Source of the DNA: Flavobacteriaceae bacterium
GTDB taxonomy: Bacteria > Bacteroidota > Bacteroidia > Flavobacteriales > Flavobacteriaceae
Reading direction: 5' to 3'
Length of the DNA: 32,000 nt
Assembly (NCBI GenBank): GCA_965224465.1
Contig: OZ245049.1
Coordinates: 2,250,001-2,282,000, forward strand
Under the pieces are notes generated by a model, which was not told where the DNA came from, did not search any database, and saw only the letters and a list, made by a program, of their open reading frames with translations. Positions 2,395 to 29,177 of the stretch are shown piece after piece (the stretch's first letter is position 1; each line of letters opens with the position of its first letter). Both the position numbers and the translations under genes were made by a program.

Positions 2395-2448
2395 ATGAAA
2401 AAAGAACTACTTATTTTATTCCTCTTATTTCTAAACACAGCCTATTCA
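2395..2448 (+). other. Signal peptide of giant protein (SPase I type)
   Basis: MKKELLILFLLFLNTAYS/QIK: charged N-region, hydrophobic core, small residues at -3/-1. No Cys, so it is not a lipoprotein. Confidence 0.7.
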
Positions 2449-5400
2449 CAAATAAAAATAGGAAATGACCCAGAAATTATAGATGGAAATTCGTTGTTAG
2501 AGCTTAAAAGTAAAGAAAAGGTTTTTGTATTGACAAGAATCAATACTTATCAAATGAATTTGATATCACCTTTGGAAGGCGCTATCATCTATAATACAGA
2601 TTTTCAATGTATCTTTCAATACAACGGGATCTTATGGGAAAACTTATGCGATAGCAGCTCTGACAATCAGACACTTAATTTTGATCCTATAACAAATATA
2701 CTAACTTTAGAAAACGGAGGAACTGTAGACCTCTCTAGCTTTTCTTCTACAGACAGTCAAAACTTAACATTAATTGAAAACACCCTTATTTTAGAAAATG
2801 GAGGAATTGTAGACCTATCTAAATACCTAGACAATACAGACGACCAATATTTTACAGATTTTTCTGTTTCTGGAACTACATTAACCATCTCTTTAGAAAA
2901 TGGAGGAACTAAACATGTAGATCTATCTGCCTTTGAAGAATCTACTGAAATAGCCACCAATCTAGAAAAAATCACTACAAACGCAAGTGATATTACTGCC
3001 ATAGAAACTGAGCAAACAACACAGAACACAAACATTGCGGCAAATGCAAGTGACATTGACGCCCTAGAAACTGAGCAAACTACTCAAAACACAAATATTG
3101 CAGCAAATACAAGTGACATTGATGCCCTAGAAACTGAGCAAACTACTCAGAATACAAATATTGCAGCAAACACTTCTAACATCTCAACAAATACCACAAA
3201 CATCACCACAAATACGAGTGACATTTCTGCTATAGAAATTGAGCAAACAACACAGAACACAAACATTGCGGCAAATGCAAGTGACATTGACGCCTTAGAA
3301 ACCGAGCAAACTACCCAAAACACAAATATTGCGGCAAATACCACAAACATTGCTACAAATGCAAGTGACATTGACGTCATAGAAACTGAGCAAACTACTC
3401 AGAACACAAATATTGCAGCAAATACCACAAACATCACCACAAACTCAAGTGACATTGATGCCTTAGAAACTGAGCAAACTACTCAGAACACAAATATTGC
3501 AGCAAACACCACAAACATCACCACAAATGCAAGCGATATTGATGCTATAGAAACCGTACAAACTACTCAAAACACAAACATCACTACAAACGCAAGTGAC
3601 ATTGATGCCCTAGAAACTGAACAAACTACTCAGAACACAAATATTGCAGCAAATACTTCCAATATCTCAACAAATACCACAAACATCACCACAAATGCGA
3701 GTGACATTGACGCCATAGAAACTGAGCAAACTACTCAAAACACAAATATTGCAGCAAATACATCTAACATCTCAACAAATGCAAGTGATATTACTGCCAT
3801 AGAAACTGAGCAAACTACTCAGAATACAAATATTGCAGCAAACACTTCCGACATCTCAACAAATACAAGTGACATTTCTGATATAGAAATTGAGCAAACT
3901 ACTCAAAATACAAACATCGCAGCGAATACAAGTGATATTTCTGATATAAAAACCGAGCAAACTACTCAGAATACAAATATTGCAGCAAACGCTTCCGACA
4001 TCTCAACAAATACCACAAACATCACCACAAATGCGAGTGACATTTCTGCTATAGAAACTGAGCAAACAACGCAGAACACAAACATAGCAGCAAATACAAG
4101 TGACATTGATGCCCTAGAAACTGAGCAAACTACTCAAAATACTAATATTGCAGCAAACACTTCCAATATCTCAACAAATACCACAAACATCACCTCAAAT
4201 GCGAGTGACATTGACGCCATAGAAACTAAGCAAACTACTCAAAATACTAATATTGCTGCAAATACAACAAACATCACTACAAATGCGAGTGACATTTCTG
4301 ATATAGAAATTGAGCAAACAACGCAGAATACAAACATCGCAGCAAATACAACAAACATCACTACAAACACAAGTGACATTTCTGATATAGAAACCGAGCA
4401 AACAACGCAGAACACAAACATTGCTGCAAATACAACAAACATCACTACAAACTCAAGTGACATTGATGCCCTAGAAACTGAGCAAACTACTCAGAACACG
4501 AACATTGCGGCAAACATTTCCGACATCTCAACAAATACCACAAACATCACCTCAAATGCGAGTGACATTGACGCCATAGAAACTGAACAAACAACGCAGA
4601 ACACAAACATAGCAGCAAATACAAGTGACATTGATGCCCTAGAAACTGAGCAAACTACTCAAAATACTAATATTGCAGCAAACACTTCCAATATCTCAAC
4701 AAATACCACAAACATCACCTCAAATGCGAGTGACATTGACGCCATAGAAACTGAGCAAACTACTCAAAATACTAATATTGCTGCAAATACAACAAACATC
4801 ACTACAAATGCGAGTGACATTTCTGATATAGAAATTGAGCAAACAACGCAGAATACAAACATCGCAGCAAATACAACAAACATCACTACAAACACAAGTG
4901 ACATTTCTGATATAGAAACCGAGCAAACAACGCAGAACACAAATATTGCAGCAAACACTTCTAACATCTCAACAAACGCAAGTGATATTACTGCTATAGA
5001 AACTGAGCAAACTACTCAGAACACAAATATTGCAGCAAACGCTTCCGACATCTCAACAAATACAACAAACATCACCACAAATGCGAGTGACATTGACGCC
5101 ATAGAAACTGAACAAACTACTCAAAACACAAACATCGCGGCAAACACAAATGATATTTCTGATATAAAAACCGAGCAAACTACTCAGAATACAAATATTG
5201 CAGCAAACACTTCTAACATCTCAACAAATACCACAAACATCACCTCAAATGCGAGTGACATTGACGCCATAGAAACTGAGCAAACTACTCAGAACACGAA
5301 CATTGCGGCAAATACAACAAACATCACTACAAATGCGAGTGACATTTCTGATATAGAAATTGAGCAAACAACGCAGAATACAAACATCGCAGCAAATACA

Positions 5401-8400
5401 ACAAACATCACTACAAACACAAGTGACATTTCTGATATAGAAACCGAGCAAACAACGCAGAACACAAACATTACTGCAAATACAACAAACATCACTACAA
5501 ACTCAAGTGACATTGATGCCCTAGAAACTGAGCAAACTACTCAGAACACGAACATTGCGGCAAACACTTCCGACATCTCAACAAATACCACAAACATCAC
5601 CTCAAATGCGAGTGACATTGACGCCATAGAAACTGAACAAACAACGCAGAACACAAACATAGCAGCAAATACAAGTGACATTGATGCCCTAGAAACTGAG
5701 CAAACTACTCAAAATACTAATATTGCAGCAAACACTTCCAATATCTCAACAAATACCACAAACATCACCTCAAATGCGAGTGACATTGACGCCATAGAAA
5801 CTGAGCAAACTACTCAAAATACTAATATTGCTGCAAATACAACAAACATCACTACAAATGCGAGTGACATTTCTGATATAGAAATTGAGCAAACAACGCA
5901 GAATACAAACATCGCAGCAAATACAACAAACATCACTACAAACACAAGTGACATTTCTGATATAGAAACCGAGCAAACAACGCAGAACACAAACATTGCT
6001 GCAAATACAACAAACATCACTACAAACTCAAGTGACATTGATGCCCTAGAAACTGAGCAAACTACTCAGAACACGAACATTGCGGCAAACACTTCCGACA
6101 TCTCAACAAATACCACAAACATCACCTCAAATGCGAGTGACATTGACGCCATAGAAACTGAACAAACAACGCAGAACACAAACATAGCAGCAAATACAAG
6201 TGACATTGATGCCCTAGAAACTGAGCAAACTACTCAAAATACTAATATTGCAGCAAACACTTCCAATATCTCAACAAATACCACAAACATCACCTCAAAT
6301 GCGAGTGACATTGACGCCATAGAAACTGAGCAAACTACTCAAAATACTAATATTGCTGCAAATACAACAAACATCACTACAAATGCGAGTGACATTTCTG
6401 ATATAGAAATTGAGCAAACAACGCAGAATACAAACATCGCAGCAAATACAACAAACATCACTACAAACACAAGTGACATTTCTGATATAGAAACCGAGCA
6501 AACAACGCAGAACACAAATATTGCAGCAAACACTTCTAACATCTCAACAAACGCAAGTGATATTACTGCTATAGAAACTGAGCAAACTACTCAGAACACA
6601 AATATTGCAGCAAACGCTTCCGACATCTCAACAAATACAACAAACATCACCACAAATGCGAGTGACATTGACGCCATAGAAACTGAACAAACTACTCAAA
6701 ACACAAACATCGCGGCAAACACAAATGATATTTCTGATATAAAAACCGAGCAAACTACTCAGAATACAAATATTGCAGCAAACACTTCTAACATCTCAAC
6801 AAATACCACAAACATCACCTCAAATGCGAGTGACATTGACGCCATAGAAACTGAGCAAACTACTCAGAACACGAACATTGCGGCAAACACTTCCGACATC
6901 TCAACAAATACCACAAACATCACCACAAATACGAGTGACATTGACGCCATAGAAACTGAGCAAACTACTCAAAACACAAATATTGCAGCAAATACTTCTA
7001 ACATCACCACAAATGCGAGTGACATTGATGACATAGAAACCGAGCAAACTACTCAGAACACGAACATTGCGGCAAACACTTCCGACATCTCAACAAATAC
7101 AACAAACATCACCACAAGTGCGAGTGACATTGACGCCATAGAAACTGAACAAACTACTCAAAACACAAACATCGCAACAAACACTTCCAGTATCTCAACA
7201 AATACCACAAACATCACTACAAACGCAAGTGATATTGATACCCTAGAAACTGAACAAACAACACAGAATACAAATATTGCAACAAACACTTCTAACATCA
7301 CCACAAATACAAGTAACATTGATGCCATAGAAACTGAGCAAACTACTCAAAACACAAACATTGCGGCAAACACTTCTAACATCTCAACAAATACAACAAA
7401 CATCACCACAAATGCGAGTGACATTTCTGCTATAGAAACTGAACAAACAACGCAGAATACAAACATCGCAACAAATGCAAGTGACATTGACACCATAGAA
7501 ACCGAGCAAACAACACAGAACACAAATATTGCGGCAAACACAACAAACATCACCACAAATGCAAGCGATATTGACGCCATAGAAACTGAGCAAACTACTC
7601 AAAACACAAATATTGCAGCAAACACTTCCGACATCTCAACAAATACAACAAACATCACTACAAACTCAAGTGACATTGACGCCATAGAAACTGAGCAAAC
7701 AACACAGAATACAAATATTGCAGCAAACACTTCTAACATCACCACAAATGCGAGTGACATTTCTGCTATAGAAACTGAACAAACTACTCAAAACACTAAT
7801 ATTATAGCAAACACTTCTAACATCTCAACAAATACCACAAACATCACCACAAATGCGAGTGACATTTCTGATATAGAAACCGAGCAAACTACTCAAAACA
7901 CTAATATTACAGCAAACACTTCCAATATCTCAACAAATACCACAAACATCACCTCAAATGCGAGTGACATTGACGCCATAGAAACTGAGCAAACTACTCA
8001 AAATACTAATATTGCTGCAAATACAACAAACATCACTACAAATGCGAGTGACATTTCTGATATAGAAATTGAGCAAACAACGCAGAATACAAACATCGCA
8101 GCAAATACAACAAACATCACTACAAACACAAGTGACATTTCTGATATAGAAACCGAGCAAACAACGCAGAACACAAATATTGCAGCAAACACTTCTAACA
8201 TCTCAACAAACGCAAGTGATATTACTGCTATAGAAACTGAGCAAACTACTCAGAACACAAATATTGCAGCAAACGCTTCCGACATCTCAACAAATACAAC
8301 AAACATCACCACAAATGCGAGTGACATTGATGCCATAGAAACTGAACAAACTACTCAAAACACAAACATCGCGGCAAACACAAATGATATTTCTGATATA

Positions 8401-11400
8401 AAAACCGAGCAAACTACTCAGAATACAAATATTGCAGCAAACACTTCTAACATCTCAACAAATACCACAAACATCACCTCAAATGCGAGTGACATTGACG
8501 CCATAGAAACTGAGCAAACTACTCAGAACACGAACATTGCGGCAAATACAACAAACATCACTACAAATGCGAGTGACATTTCTGATATAGAAATTGAGCA
8601 AACAACGCAGAATACAAACATCGCAGCAAATACAACAAACATCACTACAAACACAAGTGACATTTCTGATATAGAAACCGAGCAAACAACGCAGAACACA
8701 AATATTGCAGCAAACACTTCTAACATCTCAACAAACGCAAGTGATATTACTGCTATAGAAACTGAGCAAACTACTCAGAACACAAATATTGCAGCAAACG
8801 CTTCCGACATCTCAACAAATACAACAAACATCACCACAAATGCGAGTGACATTGACGCCATAGAAACTGAACAAACTACTCAAAACACAAACATCGCGGC
8901 AAACACAAATGATATTTCTGATATAAAAACCGAGCAAACTACTCAGAATACAAATATTGCAGCAAACACTTCTAACATCTCAACAAATACCACAAACATC
9001 ACCTCAAATGCGAGTGACATTGACGCCATAGAAACTGAGCAAACTACTCAGAACACGAACATTGCGGCAAACACAACAAACATCACTACAAACTCAAGTG
9101 ACATTGATGCCTTAGAAACTGAGCAAACAACGCAGAACACGAACATTGCGGCAAACACTTCCAACACCTCAACAAATACCACAAACATCACCACAAATGC
9201 GAGTGACATTTCTGCTATAGAAACTGAACAAACTACTCAGAACACAAACATCGCAACAAATGCAAGTGACATTGACACCATAGAAACTGAGCAAACAACG
9301 CAGAACACAAACATAGCAACAAATACAAGTGATATTACTGCCATAGAAACTGAGCAAACTACTCAAAATACTAATATTGCTGCAAATACAACAAACATCA
9401 CTACAAATGCGAGTGACATTTCTGATATAGAAATTGAGCAAACAACGCAGAATACAAACATCGCAGCAAATACAACAAACATCACTACAAACACAAGTGA
9501 CATTTCTGATATAGAAACCGAGCAAACAACGCAGAACACAAATATTGCAGCAAACACTTCTAACATCTCAACAAACGCAAGTGATATTACTGCTATAGAA
9601 ACTGAGCAAACTACTCAGAACACAAATATTGCAGCAAACGCTTCCGACATCTCAACAAATACAACAAACATCACCACAAATGCGAGTGACATTGACGCCA
9701 TAGAAACTGAACAAACTACTCAAAACACAAACATCGCGGCAAACACAAATGATATTTCTGATATAAAAACCGAGCAAACTACTCAGAATACAAATATTGC
9801 AGCAAACACTTCTAACATCTCAACAAATACCACAAACATCACCTCAAATGCGAGTGACATTGACGCCATAGAAACTGAGCAAACTACTCAGAACACGAAC
9901 ATTGCGGCAAATACAACAAACATCACTACAAATGCGAGTGACATTTCTGATATAGAAATTGAGCAAACAACGCAGAATACAAACATCGCAGCAAATACAA
10001 CAAACATCACTACAAACACAAGTGACATTTCTGATATAGAAACCGAGCAAACAACGCAGAACACAAATATTGCAGCAAACACTTCTAACATCTCAACAAA
10101 CGCAAGTGATATTACTGCTATAGAAACTGAGCAAACTACTCAGAACACAAATATTGCAGCAAACGCTTCCGACATCTCAACAAATACAACAAACATCACC
10201 ACAAATGCGAGTGACATTGACGCCATAGAAACTGAACAAACTACTCAAAACACAAACATCGCGGCAAACACAAATGATATTTCTGATATAAAAACCGAGC
10301 AAACTACGCAGAATACAAATATTGCAGCAAACACTTCTAACATCACCACAAATACAAGCGGTATTACAGCCATAGAAACTGAGCAAACAACGCAGAATAC
10401 AAACATCGCAGCAAACACTTCCAGTATCTCAACAAATACCACAAACATCACCACAAATACGGGTGACATTGACGCCATAGAAACTGAGCAGACTACTCAA
10501 AACACAAACATAGCAACAAATACAACAAACATCACTACAAACTCAAGTGACATTGACGCCATAGAAACTGAACAAACTACTCAAAACACAAATATTGCAG
10601 CAAATACAAGTGATATTTCTGATATAAAAACTGAGCAAACTACTCAGAACACGAACATTGCGGCAAACACTTCCGACATCTCAACAAATACCACAAACAT
10701 CACCACAAATACGAGTGACATTGACGCCATAGAAACCGAGCAAACTACTCAGAATACAAATATTGCAGCAAATACAACAAACATCACTACAAACTCAAGT
10801 GACATTGACGCCATAGAAACTGAACAAACTACTCAAAACACAAACATCGCGGCAAATACAAGTGATATTTCTGATATAAAAACCGAGCAAACTACTCAGA
10901 ATACAAATATTGCAGCAAACACTTCTAACATCTCAACAAATACCACAAACATCACTACAAACGCAAGTGATATTACAAATCTAGAAACTGAGCAAACTAC
11001 TCAAAACACAAATATTGCAGCAAATACTTCTAACATCACCACAAATGCGAGTGACATTGATGACATAGAAACTGAGCAAACAACACAGAATACAAATATT
11101 GCAACAAATACATCTAACATCACTACAAACGCAAGTGATATTACTGCTATAGAAACCGAGCAAACTACTCAGAACACGAACATTGCGGCAAACACTTCCG
11201 ACATCTCAACAAATACCACAAACATCACCACAAATACGAGTGACATTGACGCCATAGAAACTGAGCAAACAACGCAGAACACAAACATTGCTGCAAATAC
11301 AACAAACATCACTACAAACTCAAGTGACATTGATGCCCTACAAACTGAGCAAACTACTCAGAACACGAACATTGCGGCAAACACTTCCGACATCTCAACA

Positions 11401-14400
11401 AATACCACAAACATCACCTCAAATGCGAGTGACATTGACGCCATAGAAACTGAACAAACTACTCAAAACACAAACATCGCGGCAAATACAAGTGATATTT
11501 CTGATATAAAAACCGAGCAAACTACTCAGAATACAAATATTGCAGCAAACACTTCTAACATCTCAACAAATACCACAAACATCACCTCAAATGCGAGTGA
11601 CATTTCTGCTATAGAAACTGAACAAACTACTCAAAACACAAACATCGCGGCAAACACAAATGATATTTCTGATATAAAAACCGAGCAAACTACTCAGAAT
11701 ACAAATATTGCAGCAAACACTTCCAACATCTCAACAAACACCACAAACATCACCACAAATGCGAGTGACATTGACGCCATAGAAACTGAGCAAACTACTC
11801 AAAACACAAACATCGCGGCAAACACAAGTGACATTTCTGATATAGAAACCGAGCAAACAACGCAGAACACAAATATTGCAGCAAACACTTCTAACATCTC
11901 AACAAATACAACAAACATCACTACAAACTCAAGTGACATTGACGCCATAGAAACTGAACAAACTACTCAAAACACAAATATTGCAGCAAATACAAGTGAT
12001 ATTTCTGATATAAAAACTGAGCAAACTACTCAGAACACGAACATTGCGGCAAACACTTCCGACATCTCAACAAATACCACAAACATCACCACAAATACGA
12101 GTGACATTGACGCCATAGAAACCGAGCAAACTACTCAGAATACAAATATTGCAGCAAATACAACAAACATCACTACAAACTCAAGTGACATTGACGCCAT
12201 AGAAACTGAACAAACTACTCAAAACACAAACATCGCGGCAAATACAAGTGATATTTCTGATATAAAAACCGAGCAAACTACTCAGAATACAAATATTGCA
12301 GCAAACACTTCTAACATCTCAACAAATACCACAAACATCACTACAAACGCAAGTGATATTACAAATCTAGAAACTGAGCAAACTACTCAAAACACAAATA
12401 TTGCAGCAAATACTTCTAACATCACCACAAATGCGAGTGACATTGATGACATAGAAACTGAGCAAACAACACAGAATACAAATATTGCAACAAATACATC
12501 TAACATCACTACAAACGCAAGTGATATTACTGCTATAGAAACCGAGCAAACTACTCAGAACACGAACATTGCGGCAAACACTTCCGACATCTCAACAAAT
12601 ACCACAAACATCACCACAAATACGAGTGACATTGACGCCATAGAAACTGAGCAAACAACGCAGAACACAAACATTGCTGCAAATACAACAAACATCACTA
12701 CAAACTCAAGTGACATTGATGCCCTACAAACTGAGCAAACTACTCAGAACACGAACATTGCGGCAAACACTTCCGACATCTCAACAAATACCACAAACAT
12801 CACCTCAAATGCGAGTGACATTGACGCCATAGAAACTGAACAAACTACTCAAAACACAAACATCGCGGCAAATACAAGTGATATTTCTGATATAAAAACC
12901 GAGCAAACTACTCAGAATACAAATATTGCAGCAAACACTTCTAACATCTCAACAAATACCACAAACATCACCTCAAATGCGAGTGACATTTCTGCTATAG
13001 AAACTGAACAAACTACTCAAAACACAAACATCGCGGCAAACACAAATGATATTTCTGATATAAAAACCGAGCAAACTACTCAGAATACAAATATTGCAGC
13101 AAACACTTCCAACATCTCAACAAACACCACAAACATCACCACAAATGCGAGTGACATTGACGCCATAGAAACTGAGCAAACTACTCAAAACACAAACATC
13201 GCGGCAAACACAAGTGACATTTCTGATATAGAAACCGAGCAAACAACGCAGAACACAAATATTGCAGCAAACACTTCTAACATCTCAACAAATACCACAA
13301 ACATCACCACAAATGCGAGTGACATTGACGCCATAGAAACTGAACAAACTACTCAAAACACAAACATCGCGGCAAATACAAGTGATATTTCTGATATAAA
13401 AACCGAGCAAACTACTCAGAATACTAATATTGCGGCAAACACTTCTAACATCTCAACAAATACCACAAACATCACCTCAAATGCGAGTGACATTTCTGCT
13501 ATAGAAACTGAACAAACAACGCAGAACGCAAATATTGCAACAAACACTTCCAACATCTCAACAAATACAAGTGACATTACTGCCTTAGAAACTGAGCAAA
13601 CTACGCAGAATACAAATATTGGAACGAATACAGCAGACATTTCGACAAACACGACAAGCATTACAAATCACATAGCCAATGACTTAGATATCGACCCTAC
13701 TAATGAAATTCAAGACATCAGTATAATCGGTAATAATTTAACGATTTCAAATGGTAGCACAGTAACAATACCTACATCAGATGGATCAGAAACAATTATA
13801 CAGGCAGGAAATGCAATAACTACAATAACTGGTAGTGGTACAACAGCCGATCCATATATTGTAACAGCCACACCTGCAACATTAACCGATAATGGAGACG
13901 GAACATATACCTTTGCAAACGGAATTGACACCGATGTAACATTTGCCTTGGTTGCTAACACTCCTGCTCCTATTGTAGGGAATTCAAATACAAAAACAGG
14001 TTGTGAAGCAACAGAACAAGGAGAAACAAGCACCATTACCTTAACTGGAGAAAATTTTACATCTGACACCGTCATAACCATTCCAGGACAAACAATAGAT
14101 TATGTAACAGTAGTAAGTTCTACAGAAATAATAGTAGGAATAACTGCTGGTGGAGTTTCTGGTGATTTTGACGTAACAGCAACAAATACAAATGGTTCTG
14201 GCACATTAACCAATGGATTCCATATTAGAAATCCTTTAGTTACTAATACTATTTCAACGTTAAGCACAGACAACACAATGAATTACAACGGGTCAACGCT
14301 AGTAAAAACAGGCGGTAATGGTTGGAATGGAAACGCAAACTCAACAGCACCTAACGGCTCTTTAGAAACGGCAAAAAACGGAGGCTATTCATTTACTGTA

Positions 14401-14724
14401 AATCAAAATAACAAATGGATGAGTATGGGAATAGATGCGAACCCTTCCTTAGCCCACTCATGGAATACTATAGATTATGGTTTTAGATTTTCCAGTAGTG
14501 GAACATATAGAATTTATGAAAATAATTCGATGAAATTATCAAGTACACCTTATAATGCCAATGATAATTTTGAAATATTAAAAGATTGTAATGGAAACAT
14601 TACGTACTACAGAAATGGTAGTTTAATTTACACTTCCACTAGTACTGCGACAAACGACTTGTTTATTGACACTTGTTTTTACCACCAAAATGCCTCAGTT
14701 TCTAACATAAAACTAACAAAATAA
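2395..14724 (+). CDS. Giant secreted repeat protein (4,109 aa): putative coiled-coil fibre / adhesin-like surface protein
   Basis: Single uninterrupted 12,330-nt ORF in AT-rich DNA, which chance cannot explain. Sec-type signal peptide. Repeat cores differ only by synonymous codons, which supports real translation. The functional call is inferred from architecture only. Confidence 0.9.
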   Translation: MKKELLILFLLFLNTAYSQIKIGNDPEIIDGNSLLELKSKEKVFVLTRINTYQMNLISPLEGAIIYNTDFQCIFQYNGILWENLCDSSSDNQTLNFDPITNILTLENGGTVDLSSFSSTDSQNLTLIENTLILENGGIVDLSKYLDNTDDQYFTDFSVSGTTLTISLENGGTKHVDLSAFEESTEIATNLEKITTNASDITAIETEQTTQNTNIAANASDIDALETEQTTQNTNIAANTSDIDALETEQTTQNTNIAANTSNISTNTTNITTNTSDISAIEIEQTTQNTNIAANASDIDALETEQTTQNTNIAANTTNIATNASDIDVIETEQTTQNTNIAANTTNITTNSSDIDALETEQTTQNTNIAANTTNITTNASDIDAIETVQTTQNTNITTNASDIDALETEQTTQNTNIAANTSNISTNTTNITTNASDIDAIETEQTTQNTNIAANTSNISTNASDITAIETEQTTQNTNIAANTSDISTNTSDISDIEIEQTTQNTNIAANTSDISDIKTEQTTQNTNIAANASDISTNTTNITTNASDISAIETEQTTQNTNIAANTSDIDALETEQTTQNTNIAANTSNISTNTTNITSNASDIDAIETKQTTQNTNIAANTTNITTNASDISDIEIEQTTQNTNIAANTTNITTNTSDISDIETEQTTQNTNIAANTTNITTNSSDIDALETEQTTQNTNIAANISDISTNTTNITSNASDIDAIETEQTTQNTNIAANTSDIDALETEQTTQNTNIAANTSNISTNTTNITSNASDIDAIETEQTTQNTNIAANTTNITTNASDISDIEIEQTTQNTNIAANTTNITTNTSDISDIETEQTTQNTNIAANTSNISTNASDITAIETEQTTQNTNIAANASDISTNTTNITTNASDIDAIETEQTTQNTNIAANTNDISDIKTEQTTQNTNIAANTSNISTNTTNITSNASDIDAIETEQTTQNTNIAANTTNITTNASDISDIEIEQTTQNTNIAANTTNITTNTSDISDIETEQTTQNTNITANTTNITTNSSDIDALETEQTTQNTNIAANTSDISTNTTNITSNASDIDAIETEQTTQNTNIAANTSDIDALETEQTTQNTNIAANTSNISTNTTNITSNASDIDAIETEQTTQNTNIAANTTNITTNASDISDIEIEQTTQNTNIAANTTNITTNTSDISDIETEQTTQNTNIAANTTNITTNSSDIDALETEQTTQNTNIAANTSDISTNTTNITSNASDIDAIETEQTTQNTNIAANTSDIDALETEQTTQNTNIAANTSNISTNTTNITSNASDIDAIETEQTTQNTNIAANTTNITTNASDISDIEIEQTTQNTNIAANTTNITTNTSDISDIETEQTTQNTNIAANTSNISTNASDITAIETEQTTQNTNIAANASDISTNTTNITTNASDIDAIETEQTTQNTNIAANTNDISDIKTEQTTQNTNIAANTSNISTNTTNITSNASDIDAIETEQTTQNTNIAANTSDISTNTTNITTNTSDIDAIETEQTTQNTNIAANTSNITTNASDIDDIETEQTTQNTNIAANTSDISTNTTNITTSASDIDAIETEQTTQNTNIATNTSSISTNTTNITTNASDIDTLETEQTTQNTNIATNTSNITTNTSNIDAIETEQTTQNTNIAANTSNISTNTTNITTNASDISAIETEQTTQNTNIATNASDIDTIETEQTTQNTNIAANTTNITTNASDIDAIETEQTTQNTNIAANTSDISTNTTNITTNSSDIDAIETEQTTQNTNIAANTSNITTNASDISAIETEQTTQNTNIIANTSNISTNTTNITTNASDISDIETEQTTQNTNITANTSNISTNTTNITSNASDIDAIETEQTTQNTNIAANTTNITTNASDISDIEIEQTTQNTNIAANTTNITTNTSDISDIETEQTTQNTNIAANTSNISTNASDITAIETEQTTQNTNIAANASDISTNTTNITTNASDIDAIETEQTTQNTNIAANTNDISDIKTEQTTQNTNIAANTSNISTNTTNITSNASDIDAIETEQTTQNTNIAANTTNITTNASDISDIEIEQTTQNTNIAANTTNITTNTSDISDIETEQTTQNTNIAANTSNISTNASDITAIETEQTTQNTNIAANASDISTNTTNITTNASDIDAIETEQTTQNTNIAANTNDISDIKTEQTTQNTNIAANTSNISTNTTNITSNASDIDAIETEQTTQNTNIAANTTNITTNSSDIDALETEQTTQNTNIAANTSNTSTNTTNITTNASDISAIETEQTTQNTNIATNASDIDTIETEQTTQNTNIATNTSDITAIETEQTTQNTNIAANTTNITTNASDISDIEIEQTTQNTNIAANTTNITTNTSDISDIETEQTTQNTNIAANTSNISTNASDITAIETEQTTQNTNIAANASDISTNTTNITTNASDIDAIETEQTTQNTNIAANTNDISDIKTEQTTQNTNIAANTSNISTNTTNITSNASDIDAIETEQTTQNTNIAANTTNITTNASDISDIEIEQTTQNTNIAANTTNITTNTSDISDIETEQTTQNTNIAANTSNISTNASDITAIETEQTTQNTNIAANASDISTNTTNITTNASDIDAIETEQTTQNTNIAANTNDISDIKTEQTTQNTNIAANTSNITTNTSGITAIETEQTTQNTNIAANTSSISTNTTNITTNTGDIDAIETEQTTQNTNIATNTTNITTNSSDIDAIETEQTTQNTNIAANTSDISDIKTEQTTQNTNIAANTSDISTNTTNITTNTSDIDAIETEQTTQNTNIAANTTNITTNSSDIDAIETEQTTQNTNIAANTSDISDIKTEQTTQNTNIAANTSNISTNTTNITTNASDITNLETEQTTQNTNIAANTSNITTNASDIDDIETEQTTQNTNIATNTSNITTNASDITAIETEQTTQNTNIAANTSDISTNTTNITTNTSDIDAIETEQTTQNTNIAANTTNITTNSSDIDALQTEQTTQNTNIAANTSDISTNTTNITSNASDIDAIETEQTTQNTNIAANTSDISDIKTEQTTQNTNIAANTSNISTNTTNITSNASDISAIETEQTTQNTNIAANTNDISDIKTEQTTQNTNIAANTSNISTNTTNITTNASDIDAIETEQTTQNTNIAANTSDISDIETEQTTQNTNIAANTSNISTNTTNITTNSSDIDAIETEQTTQNTNIAANTSDISDIKTEQTTQNTNIAANTSDISTNTTNITTNTSDIDAIETEQTTQNTNIAANTTNITTNSSDIDAIETEQTTQNTNIAANTSDISDIKTEQTTQNTNIAANTSNISTNTTNITTNASDITNLETEQTTQNTNIAANTSNITTNASDIDDIETEQTTQNTNIATNTSNITTNASDITAIETEQTTQNTNIAANTSDISTNTTNITTNTSDIDAIETEQTTQNTNIAANTTNITTNSSDIDALQTEQTTQNTNIAANTSDISTNTTNITSNASDIDAIETEQTTQNTNIAANTSDISDIKTEQTTQNTNIAANTSNISTNTTNITSNASDISAIETEQTTQNTNIAANTNDISDIKTEQTTQNTNIAANTSNISTNTTNITTNASDIDAIETEQTTQNTNIAANTSDISDIETEQTTQNTNIAANTSNISTNTTNITTNASDIDAIETEQTTQNTNIAANTSDISDIKTEQTTQNTNIAANTSNISTNTTNITSNASDISAIETEQTTQNANIATNTSNISTNTSDITALETEQTTQNTNIGTNTADISTNTTSITNHIANDLDIDPTNEIQDISIIGNNLTISNGSTVTIPTSDGSETIIQAGNAITTITGSGTTADPYIVTATPATLTDNGDGTYTFANGIDTDVTFALVANTPAPIVGNSNTKTGCEATEQGETSTITLTGENFTSDTVITIPGQTIDYVTVVSSTEIIVGITAGGVSGDFDVTATNTNGSGTLTNGFHIRNPLVTNTISTLSTDNTMNYNGSTLVKTGGNGWNGNANSTAPNGSLETAKNGGYSFTVNQNNKWMSMGIDANPSLAHSWNTIDYGFRFSSSGTYRIYENNSMKLSSTPYNANDNFEILKDCNGNITYYRNGSLIYTSTSTATNDLFIDTCFYHQNASVSNIKLTK
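2449..2934 (+). other. N-terminal head: conserved Bacteroidota-type N-domain plus three LENGG modules
   Basis: aa 19-85 (NSLLELKSKEKVFVLTRINTYQMNLISPLEGAIIYNTD...YNGILWENL) resembles, from memory, the N-terminal module seen in many Bacteroidota surface or tail-fiber-like proteins. Three roughly 27-aa modules follow: TLNFDPITNILTLENGGTVDLSSF, NLTLIENTLILENGGIVDLSKYLD and FSVSGTTLTISLENGGTKHVDLSAF. Confidence 0.5.
4113..6850 (+). repeat. 525-bp (175-aa, 6-unit) higher-order repeat zone with a 1575-bp super-period
   Basis: Sequence at 4141 recurs at 4666. Identical antisense-ORF translations recur at 4195/4720/5770/6295 (a variant at 5245), at 4239/5814, and at 4764/6339. The same block types reappear at 7954-8726 and 9319-10091. 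Confidence 0.9.
10515..13295 (+). repeat. Perfect 1,386-bp (462-aa) tandem duplication inside the array
   Basis: Line-by-line comparison of 10518-11400 with 11904-12786 found no mismatch. The 11821-11909 stretch also matches 13207-13295. The copies diverge at about 11910/13296. Identical antisense ORFs at 10981 and 12367 have the same 1,386-bp offset. Confidence 0.9.
13693..13773 (+). other. Fourth LENGG-like module immediately after the repeat array
   Basis: DPTNEIQDISIIGNNLTISNGSTVTIP resembles the three N-terminal modules (xNQTLxF...NxLTLENGGTVDL). It is followed by TLTDNGDGTYTFANGIDTDVTF. Confidence 0.45.
13963..14235 (+). other. IPT/TIG-like Ig-fold domain
   Basis: PAPIVG...GETSTITLTGENFTSDTVITIPGQTIDYVTVVSSTEIIVGITAGGVSGDFDVTATNTNGSGTLTNGFHI follows the P-x-I...G-x-x-(I/L)-T-(I/L)-x-G-x-N-F...V-x-(I/V)-G...S-x-x-x-I-x-V pattern typical of IPT/TIG domains. 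Judged by eye only. Confidence 0.5.
14236..14721 (+). other. C-terminal ~160-aa beta-sandwich / lectin-like (LamG/ConA-like) domain
   Basis: GGNGWNGNANS...GGYSFTVNQNNKWMSMGID...IDYGFRFSSSGTYRIYENNSMKL...DNFEILKDCNGNITYYRNGSLIYTS shows alternating beta-strand-like pattern with aromatic and Gly/Asn turns. No YPNP / KLIK-type T9SS CTD pattern was seen. Confidence 0.4.
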
Positions 14725-18117: not shown

Positions 18118-19458
18118 TTAATAGTGAAAACCTTCACTTTCTTTAAGATACGGATTGTTTTTTACTACAAGTGGAGCTTTTGATAAAGCATTAAATACCA
18201 CATAAATAAATATCCCTGCAATCAACAATACAGCACCTATTTCTGGAATTCCAATAAACCAATGTGTTCCTACAGTTGCAGGCATCACCATTACGAAGAT
18301 GTCTATATAATGCCCTATAAGGATTACAATACCTGTAACCATCACAAACCAATTTAGGCGTTTAAAATCGCTATTCATCAATACGAGTAATGGGAATACA
18401 AAATTTAATCCGACCATTCCTAAAAACGGCAAACGATAATCTTCAAATCTTGTAATAAAATAAGTTACCTCCTCTGGAATATTTGCATACCATATCAACA
18501 TGAATTGTGAAAACCATAAATACGTCCAGAAAACACTGAATCCAAACATGTATTTAGCTAAATCATGTAAATGACTCTTGTTTACTACTTCTAAATACCC
18601 TTGTCCTTTTAGGTACATGGTAACCAAAGCAATTACTGTAACAGCAGATACGATAGCACTCGAAAATATATACCAACCGAATAAGGTAGAGAACCAGTGT
18701 GGATCTAAGGACATAATCCAGTCCCAAGACATCATAGATTCCGTGATTAAGAAAAACACTAAAAACCCTGCTGATCGCTTGAATAATTTACGATAATTCC
18801 CAGTATCAACAATATCTTGAGCCTTTGTTAATTTACGAGAATGCCATTGGAAAAAAGACCAACCTCCGATATAAATAACAGCTCTTATTAAAAAGAAAGG
18901 TACATTTAAGTATCCTTCTTTATTTTGCAATAATTGATCTCCAGCAACTACATCAGCATCCATCCATATAAAAAGATGATTCATATGCATTCCTGATAAT
19001 ACCAAAAACACAAATAACAAAATACCTCCTATTGGTAAATAAGCAGCGATGGCTTCCATTACTCGAAACAATACAATAGACCATCCTGCCTGAGTTGCAT
19101 TCTGAATTGCATAAAAAGCAAGTGCTGTTAATGAAATTATTAAGAAAAAGAATATCGCCACATACAATGCAGACCAAGGTCTATTTTGCAATTGGTGTAA
19201 AACATGGAGCGCATGTGCATCGTGTGCCTCCTCCGTACTATGAGCATCTGTTGTATTATGACTTTCCGTTGTAGTTGTCTCATGTGATGCTTCGGCATGT
19301 GTATCAACAGCATGCGTATCATGACTTTCGTGAGCCATCATTTCTTTGACTTCCTCTACCGTACTAGGCGTAGATAAAAATCCGTAAGTAACGCCTAGAA
19401 GCCCAACAATCATTAAGGCAAACGAAAATGTTTTTAATTTACTTGAAAATGTATACAT
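18118..19458 (-). CDS. actF: Alternative Complex III subunit ActF (polytopic NrfD-like membrane subunit; quinol:cytochrome c oxidoreductase)
   Basis: 446 aa and strongly hydrophobic. It is the last gene of the actABCDEF order, directly upstream of the cox genes. It carries a His/Thr/Glu-rich insert after the first TM helix. Confidence 0.7.
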   Translation of the reverse strand: MYTFSSKLKTFSFALMIVGLLGVTYGFLSTPSTVEEVKEMMAHESHDTHAVDTHAEASHETTTTESHNTTDAHSTEEAHDAHALHVLHQLQNRPWSALYVAIFFFLIISLTALAFYAIQNATQAGWSIVLFRVMEAIAAYLPIGGILLFVFLVLSGMHMNHLFIWMDADVVAGDQLLQNKEGYLNVPFFLIRAVIYIGGWSFFQWHSRKLTKAQDIVDTGNYRKLFKRSAGFLVFFLITESMMSWDWIMSLDPHWFSTLFGWYIFSSAIVSAVTVIALVTMYLKGQGYLEVVNKSHLHDLAKYMFGFSVFWTYLWFSQFMLIWYANIPEEVTYFITRFEDYRLPFLGMVGLNFVFPLLVLMNSDFKRLNWFVMVTGIVILIGHYIDIFVMVMPATVGTHWFIGIPEIGAVLLIAGIFIYVVFNALSKAPLVVKNNPYLKESEGFHY

Positions 19459-28060: not shown

Positions 28061-29177
28061 AATTCAACTAATAAACGCAACTTTTCGATTTGATTCTATG
28101 ATGGTTATATTTTCAAAACAGAAAAGTAGGAAAACCTACCTTTCTTGTCTTGATGGATATGTATCTTACGGTCTCAAATCTCGAAAAAAGAAGTTGTATG
28201 AAACACATCACCCAAGCGCAAAGATACACAATTTGTTGCATGTTAAAACAAGGTTATAAACAGGTTGAGATAGCAGCTGCTATAGGAAAAGACAAGTCTG
28301 TTATTAGCAAAGAGATTAAGCGTAATTCAGACAAAAGAAATGGAGTTTACAAGCATGAATTAGCCCAAAAAAAGTATGCTAAACGTCATAAAGAAAAGCC
28401 TAAAAGAAAACGCTTTACAGAAGATATTCAACAAGCAATAGAGTTGTTATTGCGAGACGATTATAGTCCTGAGCAAGTAGTTGGTGTCCTAAAAAAACAA
28501 GGTAAAGAAACGGTGTCTATTGAGCGTATATATCAGCATATTAGGGAAGACAAGAGGAATGATGGTGATTTACATACACACCTTCGCAGACAGGGAAGGA
28601 GATATAGAAAACGTGGCTCATCAAAGGATTCTAGAGGGGTTATAAAGAATCGTATTAGTATAGAACAACGCCCTGAAGTTGTTGAACAAAGAAATCGATT
28701 TGGAGATTTAGAGGTCGATTTAATCATAGGTAAAAACCATAATCAAGCCATACTTACCGTAAATGATAGAGCTTCTGGAATGCTTAAAATGAAAAAAGTA
28801 AGCTCTAAAGAAGCAGTTGTTGTCACTAAAGCTATCAATGAAATATTAGAAGACTGGAAGCCTTATCTACATACTATAACAGCTGATAATGGAAAAGAAT
28901 TTGCAGGCCATGAGCAGGTTGCAGAAAATTTATGTATTGATTACTTTTTTGCGCATCCATATCACTCTTGGGAAAGAGGATCTAACGAAAATTTAAATGG
29001 TTTGATTAGACAATATTTTGCCAAAGGAAGTGACTTTACAAACCTAACAGATCAAAGAATCAAAGAGGTAGAAACAAAATTAAATAACAGACCTAGGAAG
29101 AGACATAAATATCAAAACCCTATATTTGTAATGGAACAATTATTATTTAACTAAAAGTTGCGTTTGTGACTTGAATT
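28061..29177 (+). mobile_element. IS30-family insertion sequence (1,117 bp)
   Basis: Terminal inverted repeats aattcaactaataaacgcaactttt (28061-28085) and, reverse-complemented, aattcaagtcacaaacgcaactttt (29153-29177), matching at 21/25 positions. They enclose a single DDE transposase ORF. No clear target-site duplication is present (flanks tta / cag). Confidence 0.85.
28198..29154 (+). CDS. IS30-family transposase
   Basis: N-terminal HTH region (MKHITQAQRYTICCMLKQGYKQVEIAAAIGKDKSVISKEIKRN). DDE triad context DLIIGK ... ITADNGKEF ... HPYHSWERGSNENLNGLIRQY. The ATG at 28198 is preferred over the TTG at 28150 listed in the ORF track. Confidence 0.9.
   Translation: MKHITQAQRYTICCMLKQGYKQVEIAAAIGKDKSVISKEIKRNSDKRNGVYKHELAQKKYAKRHKEKPKRKRFTEDIQQAIELLLRDDYSPEQVVGVLKKQGKETVSIERIYQHIREDKRNDGDLHTHLRRQGRRYRKRGSSKDSRGVIKNRISIEQRPEVVEQRNRFGDLEVDLIIGKNHNQAILTVNDRASGMLKMKKVSSKEAVVVTKAINEILEDWKPYLHTITADNGKEFAGHEQVAENLCIDYFFAHPYHSWERGSNENLNGLIRQYFAKGSDFTNLTDQRIKEVETKLNNRPRKRHKYQNPIFVMEQLLFN

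Follow-up and report, generated by a model that had tools for sequence, protein, structure and literature searches.

The closest described counterparts of the element treated here are the stalks that trimeric autotransporter adhesins (TAAs) carry. Asparagine at heptad position d (N@d) is the commonest polar core element of these stalks; the Asn layers hold an anion on the axis, and about half of them are followed by threonine at position e (T@e) (PMC13580157). In natural coiled coils, the highest polar share of the core is 50–57%, the longest TAA stalks reach 40–52 heptads, and in the protein Lferr_2308 heptads with Q@a/D@d are bracketed by canonical Ile/Leu layers (PMC13580157). Among coiled coils of any kind, that of giantin, ~0.5 µm long, was named the longest identified in a 2016 review (PMC5082667). 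Here, we describe a giant gene of a Flavobacteriaceae bacterium (GCA_965224465.1, contig OZ245049.1, positions 2,250,001–2,282,000 of the forward strand) whose 4,109-residue product carries an unbroken array of 511 heptads. “The window” is this whole stretch of 32,000 nucleotides (nt), and positions are window coordinates, with position 1 as its first letter.

We cut the product at each QTTQN core and tabulated the unit lengths modulo 7. The 123 cores delimit 122 units of 28 (48 units), 35 (45), or 21 residues (29), every length being 0 modulo 7. Each unit opens on QTTQNTN, continues through one to three IxxNxxx heptads, and closes on a single IxxI/LExE heptad. An earlier sequence-only reading of this DNA had held that all units, about 120 of them, are 21, 28, or 35 residues long, that they differ by whole heptads only, and that some 510 heptads run in phase; these statements stand, the counts now being 122 and 511. 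By class, there are 263 IxxN(T/A/S)xx heptads, 123 IxxI/LExE, 123 QTTQNTN, and 2 irregular ones. Position a is filled by Ile (387) or Gln (123), and position d by Asn (263), Gln (123), Ile (105), or Leu (19). A non-canonical residue at a or d occurs in just three heptads (residues 1572, 2258, and 3756), and all three cases are substitutions, with zero insertions or deletions (indels). From residue 186 to residue 3762 the register is constant and no insertion of 1–6 residues interrupts it, as in a canonical, stutter-free heptad coiled coil.

Fourier analysis, a check that the earlier reading had proposed, gives the same picture. The spectra of Ile/Leu/Val, of Asn, and of Ile/Leu/Val/Gln all peak at 3.5 residues and show harmonics at 2.33 and 7, and no section of the array loses the peak. 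The phase is steady within ~25 degrees across each 70-residue segment of the array and disappears on both sides of it; the array gives no period-2 signal. Its 3,577 residues include no Pro, no aromatic residue, and 3 Gly, and consist of 27% Thr, 18% Asn, and 9% Ser. On its coding strand, A makes up 45%, C 25%, T 18%, and G 12%, a strong skew; past the giant gene, the downstream DNA of the window comes close to A/T parity, with 33% A and 32% T.

The core is of the type known from TAA stalks. All 263 N@d heptads have Ile at a, and 176 of them have Thr at e, so that the N@d motif (aliphatic a, Asn d, frequent Thr e) is present at sequence level. Of the a positions 24% are polar and of the d positions 76%, which makes 50% of the core overall, and each pair of Gln/Gln layers is flanked by Ile layers. 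The likeness to TAAs thus covers the aliphatic a, Asn d, and frequent Thr e residues, a core about half polar, and the role of stalk in a fibrous surface protein; the likeness to Lferr_2308 lies in polar layers of the Gln type between canonical Ile/Leu layers. The differences are equally plain. The array is about ten times longer than the 40–52 heptads of TAA stalks and lacks their typical interruptions and necks, the host is Bacteroidota-like rather than proteobacterial, the head and tip domains are others, and there is no YadA barrel. At sequence level the protein has an N@d-rich stalk in the manner of TAAs without the YadA anchor (PF03895), and with no anchor we rejected its membership in this class (type Vc). 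The array has all the features by which a single continuous coiled coil without stutters or stammers, as the earlier reading had proposed, is known from sequence, and such a coiled coil is the best explanation of it. At 0.148–0.150 nm per residue, the predicted rod measures ~530 nm.

Recombination has clearly reshuffled and expanded the array, as had also been supposed. At the DNA level, 62 of the 122 units are distinct, in recurring blocks, and ~65–70% of the array is covered by exact repeats of at least 420 nt. The longest exact repeat, of 1,396 nt, starts at 10514 and recurs at an offset of 1,386 nt; in it the unit string “vwxyz01b2ay3W45” stands twice in succession. This duplication is either the most recent expansion or the likeliest site of an assembly error. 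With so much of the array in exact repeats, the number of independent heptads is nearer 180–290 than 511: when later copies of exact repeats of at least 63 nt are dropped, ~180 non-redundant heptads are left, all in one phase.

All repeat offsets listed earlier (525, 840, 1365, 1386, 1575, 1659, and 3234 nt) were recovered, and none of the 154 offsets between identical 60-mers deviates from a multiple of 21 nt. It is important to see what this does and does not mean. Given units whose lengths are all divisible by 21 nt, simple arithmetic makes every offset divisible by 21 as well. There is, in the whole array, no out-of-register exact match of 11 nt or more, all such repeats recurring at multiples of 21 nt, and homologous recombination and slippage can therefore yield only multiples of 21 nt. 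Register-preserving duplications are automatic, and hence no evidence that selection removed heptad-breaking products. The argument that only register-preserving products persist, and that selection must be the cause, fails on this point, since recombination here cannot break the register; a misassembly through the repeats would likewise keep it. The heptad pattern is far from chance, but it is an automatic product of a 21-nt-periodic repeat.

Selection on the heptad pattern shows in the codons instead, where synonymous diversity comes close to saturation and yet the residues at a and d are almost fixed. The QTTQNTN heptad exists in 21 DNA haplotypes that encode 2 peptides, with a ratio of nonsynonymous to synonymous differences (pN/pS) of 0.002. 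In the N@d heptads, position a has a pS of 0.72 against a pN of 0.003, and position d a pN of 0. Surface positions b, c, e, f, and g show a pN of 0.2–0.45, whereas at core positions a and d pN is ~0 against a pS of at least 0.7. A minimum spanning tree of the distinct units cannot do with fewer than 336 substitutions, and 196 of these fall in synonymous codon changes; its nonsynonymous changes number 1 at position a and 12 at position d. The same tree contains no non-heptad indel, and the absence of small in-frame indels is suggestive, not decisive. At commonly assumed indel-to-substitution ratios a few might be expected, which is our own rough estimate and is confounded by unit turnover. A rigorous test of register selection by indels against substitutions was dropped, as unit turnover and gene conversion confound it, and we offer the rough argument only. 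What survives of the earlier interpretation is thus the continuous coiled coil, its exceptional length, and the reshuffling; what does not is the step from recombination to selection, the constraint being shown by codons.

The array lies between two dissimilar ends, and the parts of the gene are as follows.

2395–14724, plus strand: giant open reading frame (ORF), stop codon counted in, for a secreted fibrous protein of 4,109 residues (ORF list, translation).
2395–2451, plus strand: Sec-type signal peptide MKKELLILFLLFLNTAYSQ, without a lipobox cysteine (translation; N-terminal helix in the AlphaFold2 (AF2) model; present in homologues).
2452–2658, plus strand: conserved N-terminal head domain, about residues 20–88, with two conserved Cys (19 protein homologues, 231 genomic matches, alignment A1).
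2668–2928, plus strand: three beta-hairpin repeats of the type “LTLENGGTVDLS...DNTDDQ” (translation; AF2 strand pairs; repeats also in the relatives P0008, P0010, P0011, and P0017).
2950–13680, plus strand: unbroken heptad array, residues 186–3762, 511 heptads (unit parsing, register, composition, codon-level constraint).
10514–13295, plus strand: block of 1,386 nt (66 heptads) duplicated in tandem without a mismatch (longest exact repeat).
13660–13968, plus strand: conserved coiled-coil exit and connector, ITNHIANDLDIDPTNEIQDISIIGNNLTISNGSTVTIPTSDGSETIIQAGNAITTITGSGTTADPYIV... (junction kept in relatives; AF2 confidence low).
13969–14250, plus strand: immunoglobulin (Ig)-like, IPT/TIG-like beta-sandwich (AF2 predicted local distance difference test (pLDDT) 75–90, model residues 140–233; Foldseek).
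14251–14721, plus strand: C-terminal beta-sandwich (jelly-roll, lectin-like), likely the distal binding domain (AF2 pLDDT 64–93, model residues 270–380; Foldseek).

The head domain (~70 residues) has the consensus LELxSxxKxxxxxR...PxxGxxxYNTDxxCxxxYxGxxWxxLC. AF2 models it as a small beta domain (pLDDT 70–86; whole model 69) for which Foldseek found no fold match in the PDB, nothing falling below E = 0.02. It has homologues in 19 proteins and in 231 genomic matches confirmed by tblastn; the 79 loci that were kept are 42–63% identical. The genera represented include Aquimarina, Tenacibaculum, Cellulophaga, and Maribacter. With its signal peptide and head, the giant protein belongs to this head-fibre family (phmmer E 1e-48 to 1e-4; invariant columns of alignment A1). 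PF26696 is the tag that precomputed database annotation gives to the homologues.

At the other end, the AF2 model of the C-terminal 390 residues, built from a shallow alignment, has a mean pLDDT of 58 and includes a confident Ig-like domain and a confident jelly-roll beta-sandwich. For the former, Foldseek returned EBF IPT/TIG domains with a target TM-score of up to 0.73; for the latter, galectin-related carbohydrate-recognition domains, SPRY/PRYSPRY, the BoNT receptor-binding domain (BoNT-Hc), and Bacteroides SGBP-B, at low global TM-score. A PDB sequence search with the C-terminal region gave one match, non-significant and unrelated, and Pfam, NCBIfam, and PHROGs gave no significant family for either end domain. 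The models suggest that the C-terminal module (~250 residues) may serve as a ligand-binding tip. In P0001 and P0002 (389–391 residues), which are 39–43% identical over this module, a head-family domain is joined straight to GSGTTADPYIV, the Ig-like domain, and the jelly-roll, with no stalk, which makes the stalk of the giant protein an inserted spacer. These two short proteins would be convenient targets for work on end-domain function.

Between array and tip, the exit motif ITNHIANDLDIDPTNEIQ...GSGTTADPYIV closes the array on its C-terminal side. The exit junction is also found in the Lacinutrix locus L064 (INNHIANDLDIDATNEIQ), P0006, P0007, P0036, and P0038, and the GSGTTADPYIV module in P0001–P0005. 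At the coiled-coil end (13660–13730, and in L064, P0006, P0007, P0036, and P0038) an acidic motif, H-x-x-x-D-x-D-x-D-x-T-N-E-I/L-Q, is followed by a beta-hairpin of the form xISxxGxxLTISNGS. By analogy with the connectors of TAA stalks, the acidic exit motif may be a calcium-binding, neck-like connector.

How unusual is the length of the array among relatives? None of the 79 head-domain genome loci carries a long heptad array; Lacinutrix L064 alone has a segment of ~11 heptads. A lenient criterion puts the longest in-phase run in the best 150 matches, drawn from 1.84 billion cluster representatives, at 81 heptads. The exceptional length that the earlier reading had claimed thus holds against these matches as against the TAA extremes (PMC13580157). 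The nearest relatives are P0036 and P0037, which share the head and are 44–50% identical over the matched array stretches. Their 21-residue units lie in 7–9 segments of 5–23 heptads, split by beta connectors of ~60 residues, with ~115 heptads in total in P0036. Within the segments, core spacing is always 21 or 28 residues and lengths vary by whole heptads. The proposal to repeat the register check on orthologues therefore had a divided outcome: no long arrays were found among the relatives, and the segmented ones keep the spacing and the whole-heptad changes. More generally, P0036–P0038 from the search of cluster representatives and L100 and L107, two metagenome contigs with Maribacter-like units, share with the giant protein a homologous head, 21-residue units of the form IDxLExEQTTQNxxIAxNxxD, the exit motif H..xDxDxxxxNE, and length changes by whole heptads. 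They differ in a coiled coil that is cut by connectors and in their C-terminal domains, whereas the giant rod is continuous and connector-free.

Behind the same head, other relatives carry other stalks. P0038 combines EQxTQN coiled-coil units and collagen (PF01391, E = 1e-29) in one chain, and P0009, 60% identical in the head, continues directly into collagen. L019 (Aquimarina sp. SS2-1) and L021 (Tenacibaculum sp. ZS6-P6) have G-x-T collagen-like stalks of more than 2,000 residues. Like the collagen-like tail fibres of prophages, these last two resemble the giant protein in a very long, repetitive, trimeric rod between globular ends, with a head 50–60% identical, but the rod is a G-x-T collagen-like helix and not an alpha-helical coiled coil. 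L033 (Tenacibaculum sp. nBUS_03) has more than 3,000 residues of near-identical beta-type repeats of ~66 residues, and L056 (Aquimarina sp. W85) mixed modules. Relatives thus connect the two ends directly or through collagen triple helices, beta-type repeats, or brief stretches of coiled coil, and the proteins form a modular fibre family with interchangeable stalks, several C-terminal domains, and one head. Most of the homologous genes (L002–L079) stop 0.2–1.5 kb past their start at a contig end, and most of the proteins (P0008–P0026) are flagged “partial”; the family is cut by short-read assembly and under-represented in protein databases.

Beyond this family, a scan of metagenomes and viral contigs for the EQTTQNTNI pattern found short segments only. 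At 21-residue spacing it occurs in ORFs of 320–450 residues on IMG/VR viral contigs (L109, L110, L112, L113, L116, and L124) and in metagenomes (L093 and L097); the viral ORFs have a globular N-terminus, a short coiled coil, and a beta-rich C-terminus. Four of them (L109, L112, L113, and L124) share with the array the unit ..I..LQ.EQTTQNTNI..N.. with IxxNTxx heptads between globular ends, and differ in having 2–15 heptads, a viral contig, and unrelated end domains. This distribution suggests that phage fibres and the surface fibres of bacteria have the unit in common or exchange it. A tblastn search of GenBank phages with an array segment gave no matches, probably through low-complexity masking.

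We consider it probable that the array is the stalk of a secreted, presumably surface-bound homotrimeric fibre that has grown by unequal homologous recombination and whose a/d pattern is kept by purifying selection. Three parallel chains would wind into a single left-handed coiled coil of 511 canonical heptads, ~0.53 µm long. Its core would consist of layers of three kinds, namely Ile, Asn at d (with an anion such as chloride on the axis), and one Gln/Gln pair per unit, giving a strongly acidic rod in which half of the core residues are polar. As a spacer, the stalk would set the Ig-like and lectin-like C-terminal module far from the conserved N-terminal head, with one end of the fibre presumably anchored. 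The array has grown by unequal homologous recombination between units of a 21-nt sub-repeat, which can add or remove whole heptads only, and purifying selection maintains the a/d pattern and the invariant QTTQNTN. The sequence pattern, the constraint, the way in which the array expanded, and the ties within the family are shown by the data; the helical trimeric fold, the binding of ions, the place at the cell surface, and the choice of anchored end are inferred.

Several observations weigh against this explanation and should be stated together. Each chain of the array bears a net charge of −454 and no more than 18 Lys/Arg, which leaves no room for the customary e/g salt bridges and would mean strong repulsion in the absence of screening counter-ions. 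Coiled coils designed to be rich in N@d, with a core that is polar throughout, are just marginally stable, and N@d-rich sequences are confidently predicted to be disordered and can be unstable alone (PMC13580157). In an AF2 monomer model from a three-sequence alignment, the last 60 array residues have a pLDDT below 40. As for the cell surface, Pfam to E 10 and NCBIfam found no YadA-like beta-barrel anchor (PF03895) in the C-terminal 347–354 residues, and NCBIfam to E 1 and Pfam to E 10 found no C-terminal sorting domain of the type IX secretion system (TIGR04183/TIGR04131 type). No anchor or secretion signal besides the Sec signal peptide was found by Pfam or NCBIfam, nor is there a lipobox. 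The copy number of the array rests on one unverified assembly, and exact repeats of 1.4 kb in an array of 10.7 kb are beyond short-read resolution. With no such sorting domain found by NCBIfam or Pfam, we also set aside the candidate of a type IX secretion cargo.

The dependence on one assembly leads to the most serious alternative, unlikely as we hold it to be: that unbroken register and length are a by-product of recent amplification or an assembly artefact, the typical gene being far shorter and its continuity without functional meaning. The exact repeats that fill ~65–70% of the array, the perfect 1,386-nt duplication, and the recurrence of 62 distinct units speak for it, as does the inability of recombination to break the register here. 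Nearly all database homologues are cut short at contig ends, a sign that these repeats defeat assemblers, and the exact 4,109-residue product has no other record in the public assemblies searched. Yet the ~180 non-redundant in-phase heptads still exceed those of every relative found, and both flanks and an intact ORF of 12.3 kb are present. Moreover, the units have diverged by at least 336 substitutions, with strong constraint at a and d, and the array is accordingly no young amplification of one unit.

Rather improbable, in our judgment, is a disordered, acidic spacer rich in Thr, Ser, and Asn and possibly glycosylated. Composition, a half-polar core, and the net charge would suit it, as would the predicted disorder and instability of such sequences alone and the low confidence of the AF2 monomer. 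A disordered chain, however, gives no reason for a fixed Ile at a and N/Q/I/L at d while b, c, e, f, and g vary, nor for the complete exclusion of Pro. O-glycosylation of the Bacteroidota type takes place at the motif D(S/T)(A/I/L/V/M/T), of which the array holds only 3.

If the array is a coiled coil, its pattern points to a parallel homotrimer. N at d together with beta-branched Ile at a reportedly favours trimers, according to Hartmann et al. 2009 and Fletcher et al. 2017. A PDB sequence search with an array segment gave weak, non-significant coiled-coil matches (E of at least 0.07). The best of these, at E 0.075, was to streptococcal M protein; others were to UspA1 and to the tail needles of P22/HK620, both known trimers. 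That the best match, although non-significant, is the dimeric M protein is the point in favour of a dimer or tetramer, a stoichiometry to which we give very little credence: the a/d residues favour trimers, the weaker matches are to trimers, and relatives carry collagen, either within one chain with such units or after a shared head, which supports the trimer further. Finally, a beta-solenoid or beta-rich fibre, as in Thr/Asn-rich antifreeze or adhesin repeats, was rejected and is barely conceivable, for although Thr, Asn, and Ile abound in the array, the periodicity is 3.5 and not 2, the turn formers Gly and Pro are nearly absent, seven residues are too short for one solenoid turn, and the units match coiled-coil motifs.

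With the trimeric coiled coil as the preferred reading, a bolder claim may be put forward tentatively, as a possibility in which we place somewhat less than even trust. The array would be the longest continuous coiled coil of any organism, a stutter-free homotrimer of 3,577 residues per chain and ~0.53 µm, with a 50% polar core and up to 263 axial anion sites. Marine chloride at ~0.5 M and divalent cations would stabilise it, and such cores might be extendable essentially without limit and be used as cell-scale tethers of half a micron. Giantin resembles it in a length of ~0.5 µm and a proposed role as spacer or tether (PMC5082667). It differs as a eukaryotic cytosolic golgin with no sequence relationship to the array. 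Giantin is moreover dimeric, and its coiled coil is not known to be one perfect heptad array.

The surroundings of the gene are those of an ordinary chromosome. A FAD (flavin adenine dinucleotide) halogenase-like gene lies upstream, and then come cox1, cox2, subunits of alternative complex III, c-type cytochromes, an IS30-like transposase, and infB, so that the giant gene sits among respiratory genes. By the taxonomy of the homologues, the source organism is a marine Flavobacteriaceae-like bacterium. Like the giant protein, the exact product of the neighbouring cox1 was found on no contig of the public collections searched. A prophage tail fibre was rejected on the grounds of this housekeeping context and of PHROGs, which is empty for both ends and gives one weak “minor head protein” match for the array. 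Two further genes deserve a mention. The IS30-like transposase (28150–29154, plus strand; HTH_38 and a weak rve integrase core) stands between the respiratory cluster and infB and is unrelated to the present finding; an ORF of 446 residues (18118–19458, minus strand) within the alternative complex III/cytochrome oxidase cluster has no Pfam match.

The protein is an extreme variant of a known structural kind and is neither a TAA nor a phage tail fibre. How polar the core of a coiled coil can become is a question that the field asks, polar-core N@d stalks of 40–52 heptads already counting as extremes (PMC13580157). If the reading given here is true, the array would be a test case for how stable polar-core coiled coils are and how far they depend on ions, for the mechanics of very long rods, in which stutters are commonly credited with easing strain or adjusting flexibility, and for the way in which the layout of repeat DNA confines the evolution of a protein to steps that keep its structure. 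The protein leads, further, to a widespread family of modular trimeric fibres in the Flavobacteriaceae, with coiled-coil, collagen-like, and beta-repeat stalks behind one head, whose genes break short-read assemblies and which is therefore nearly invisible in databases.

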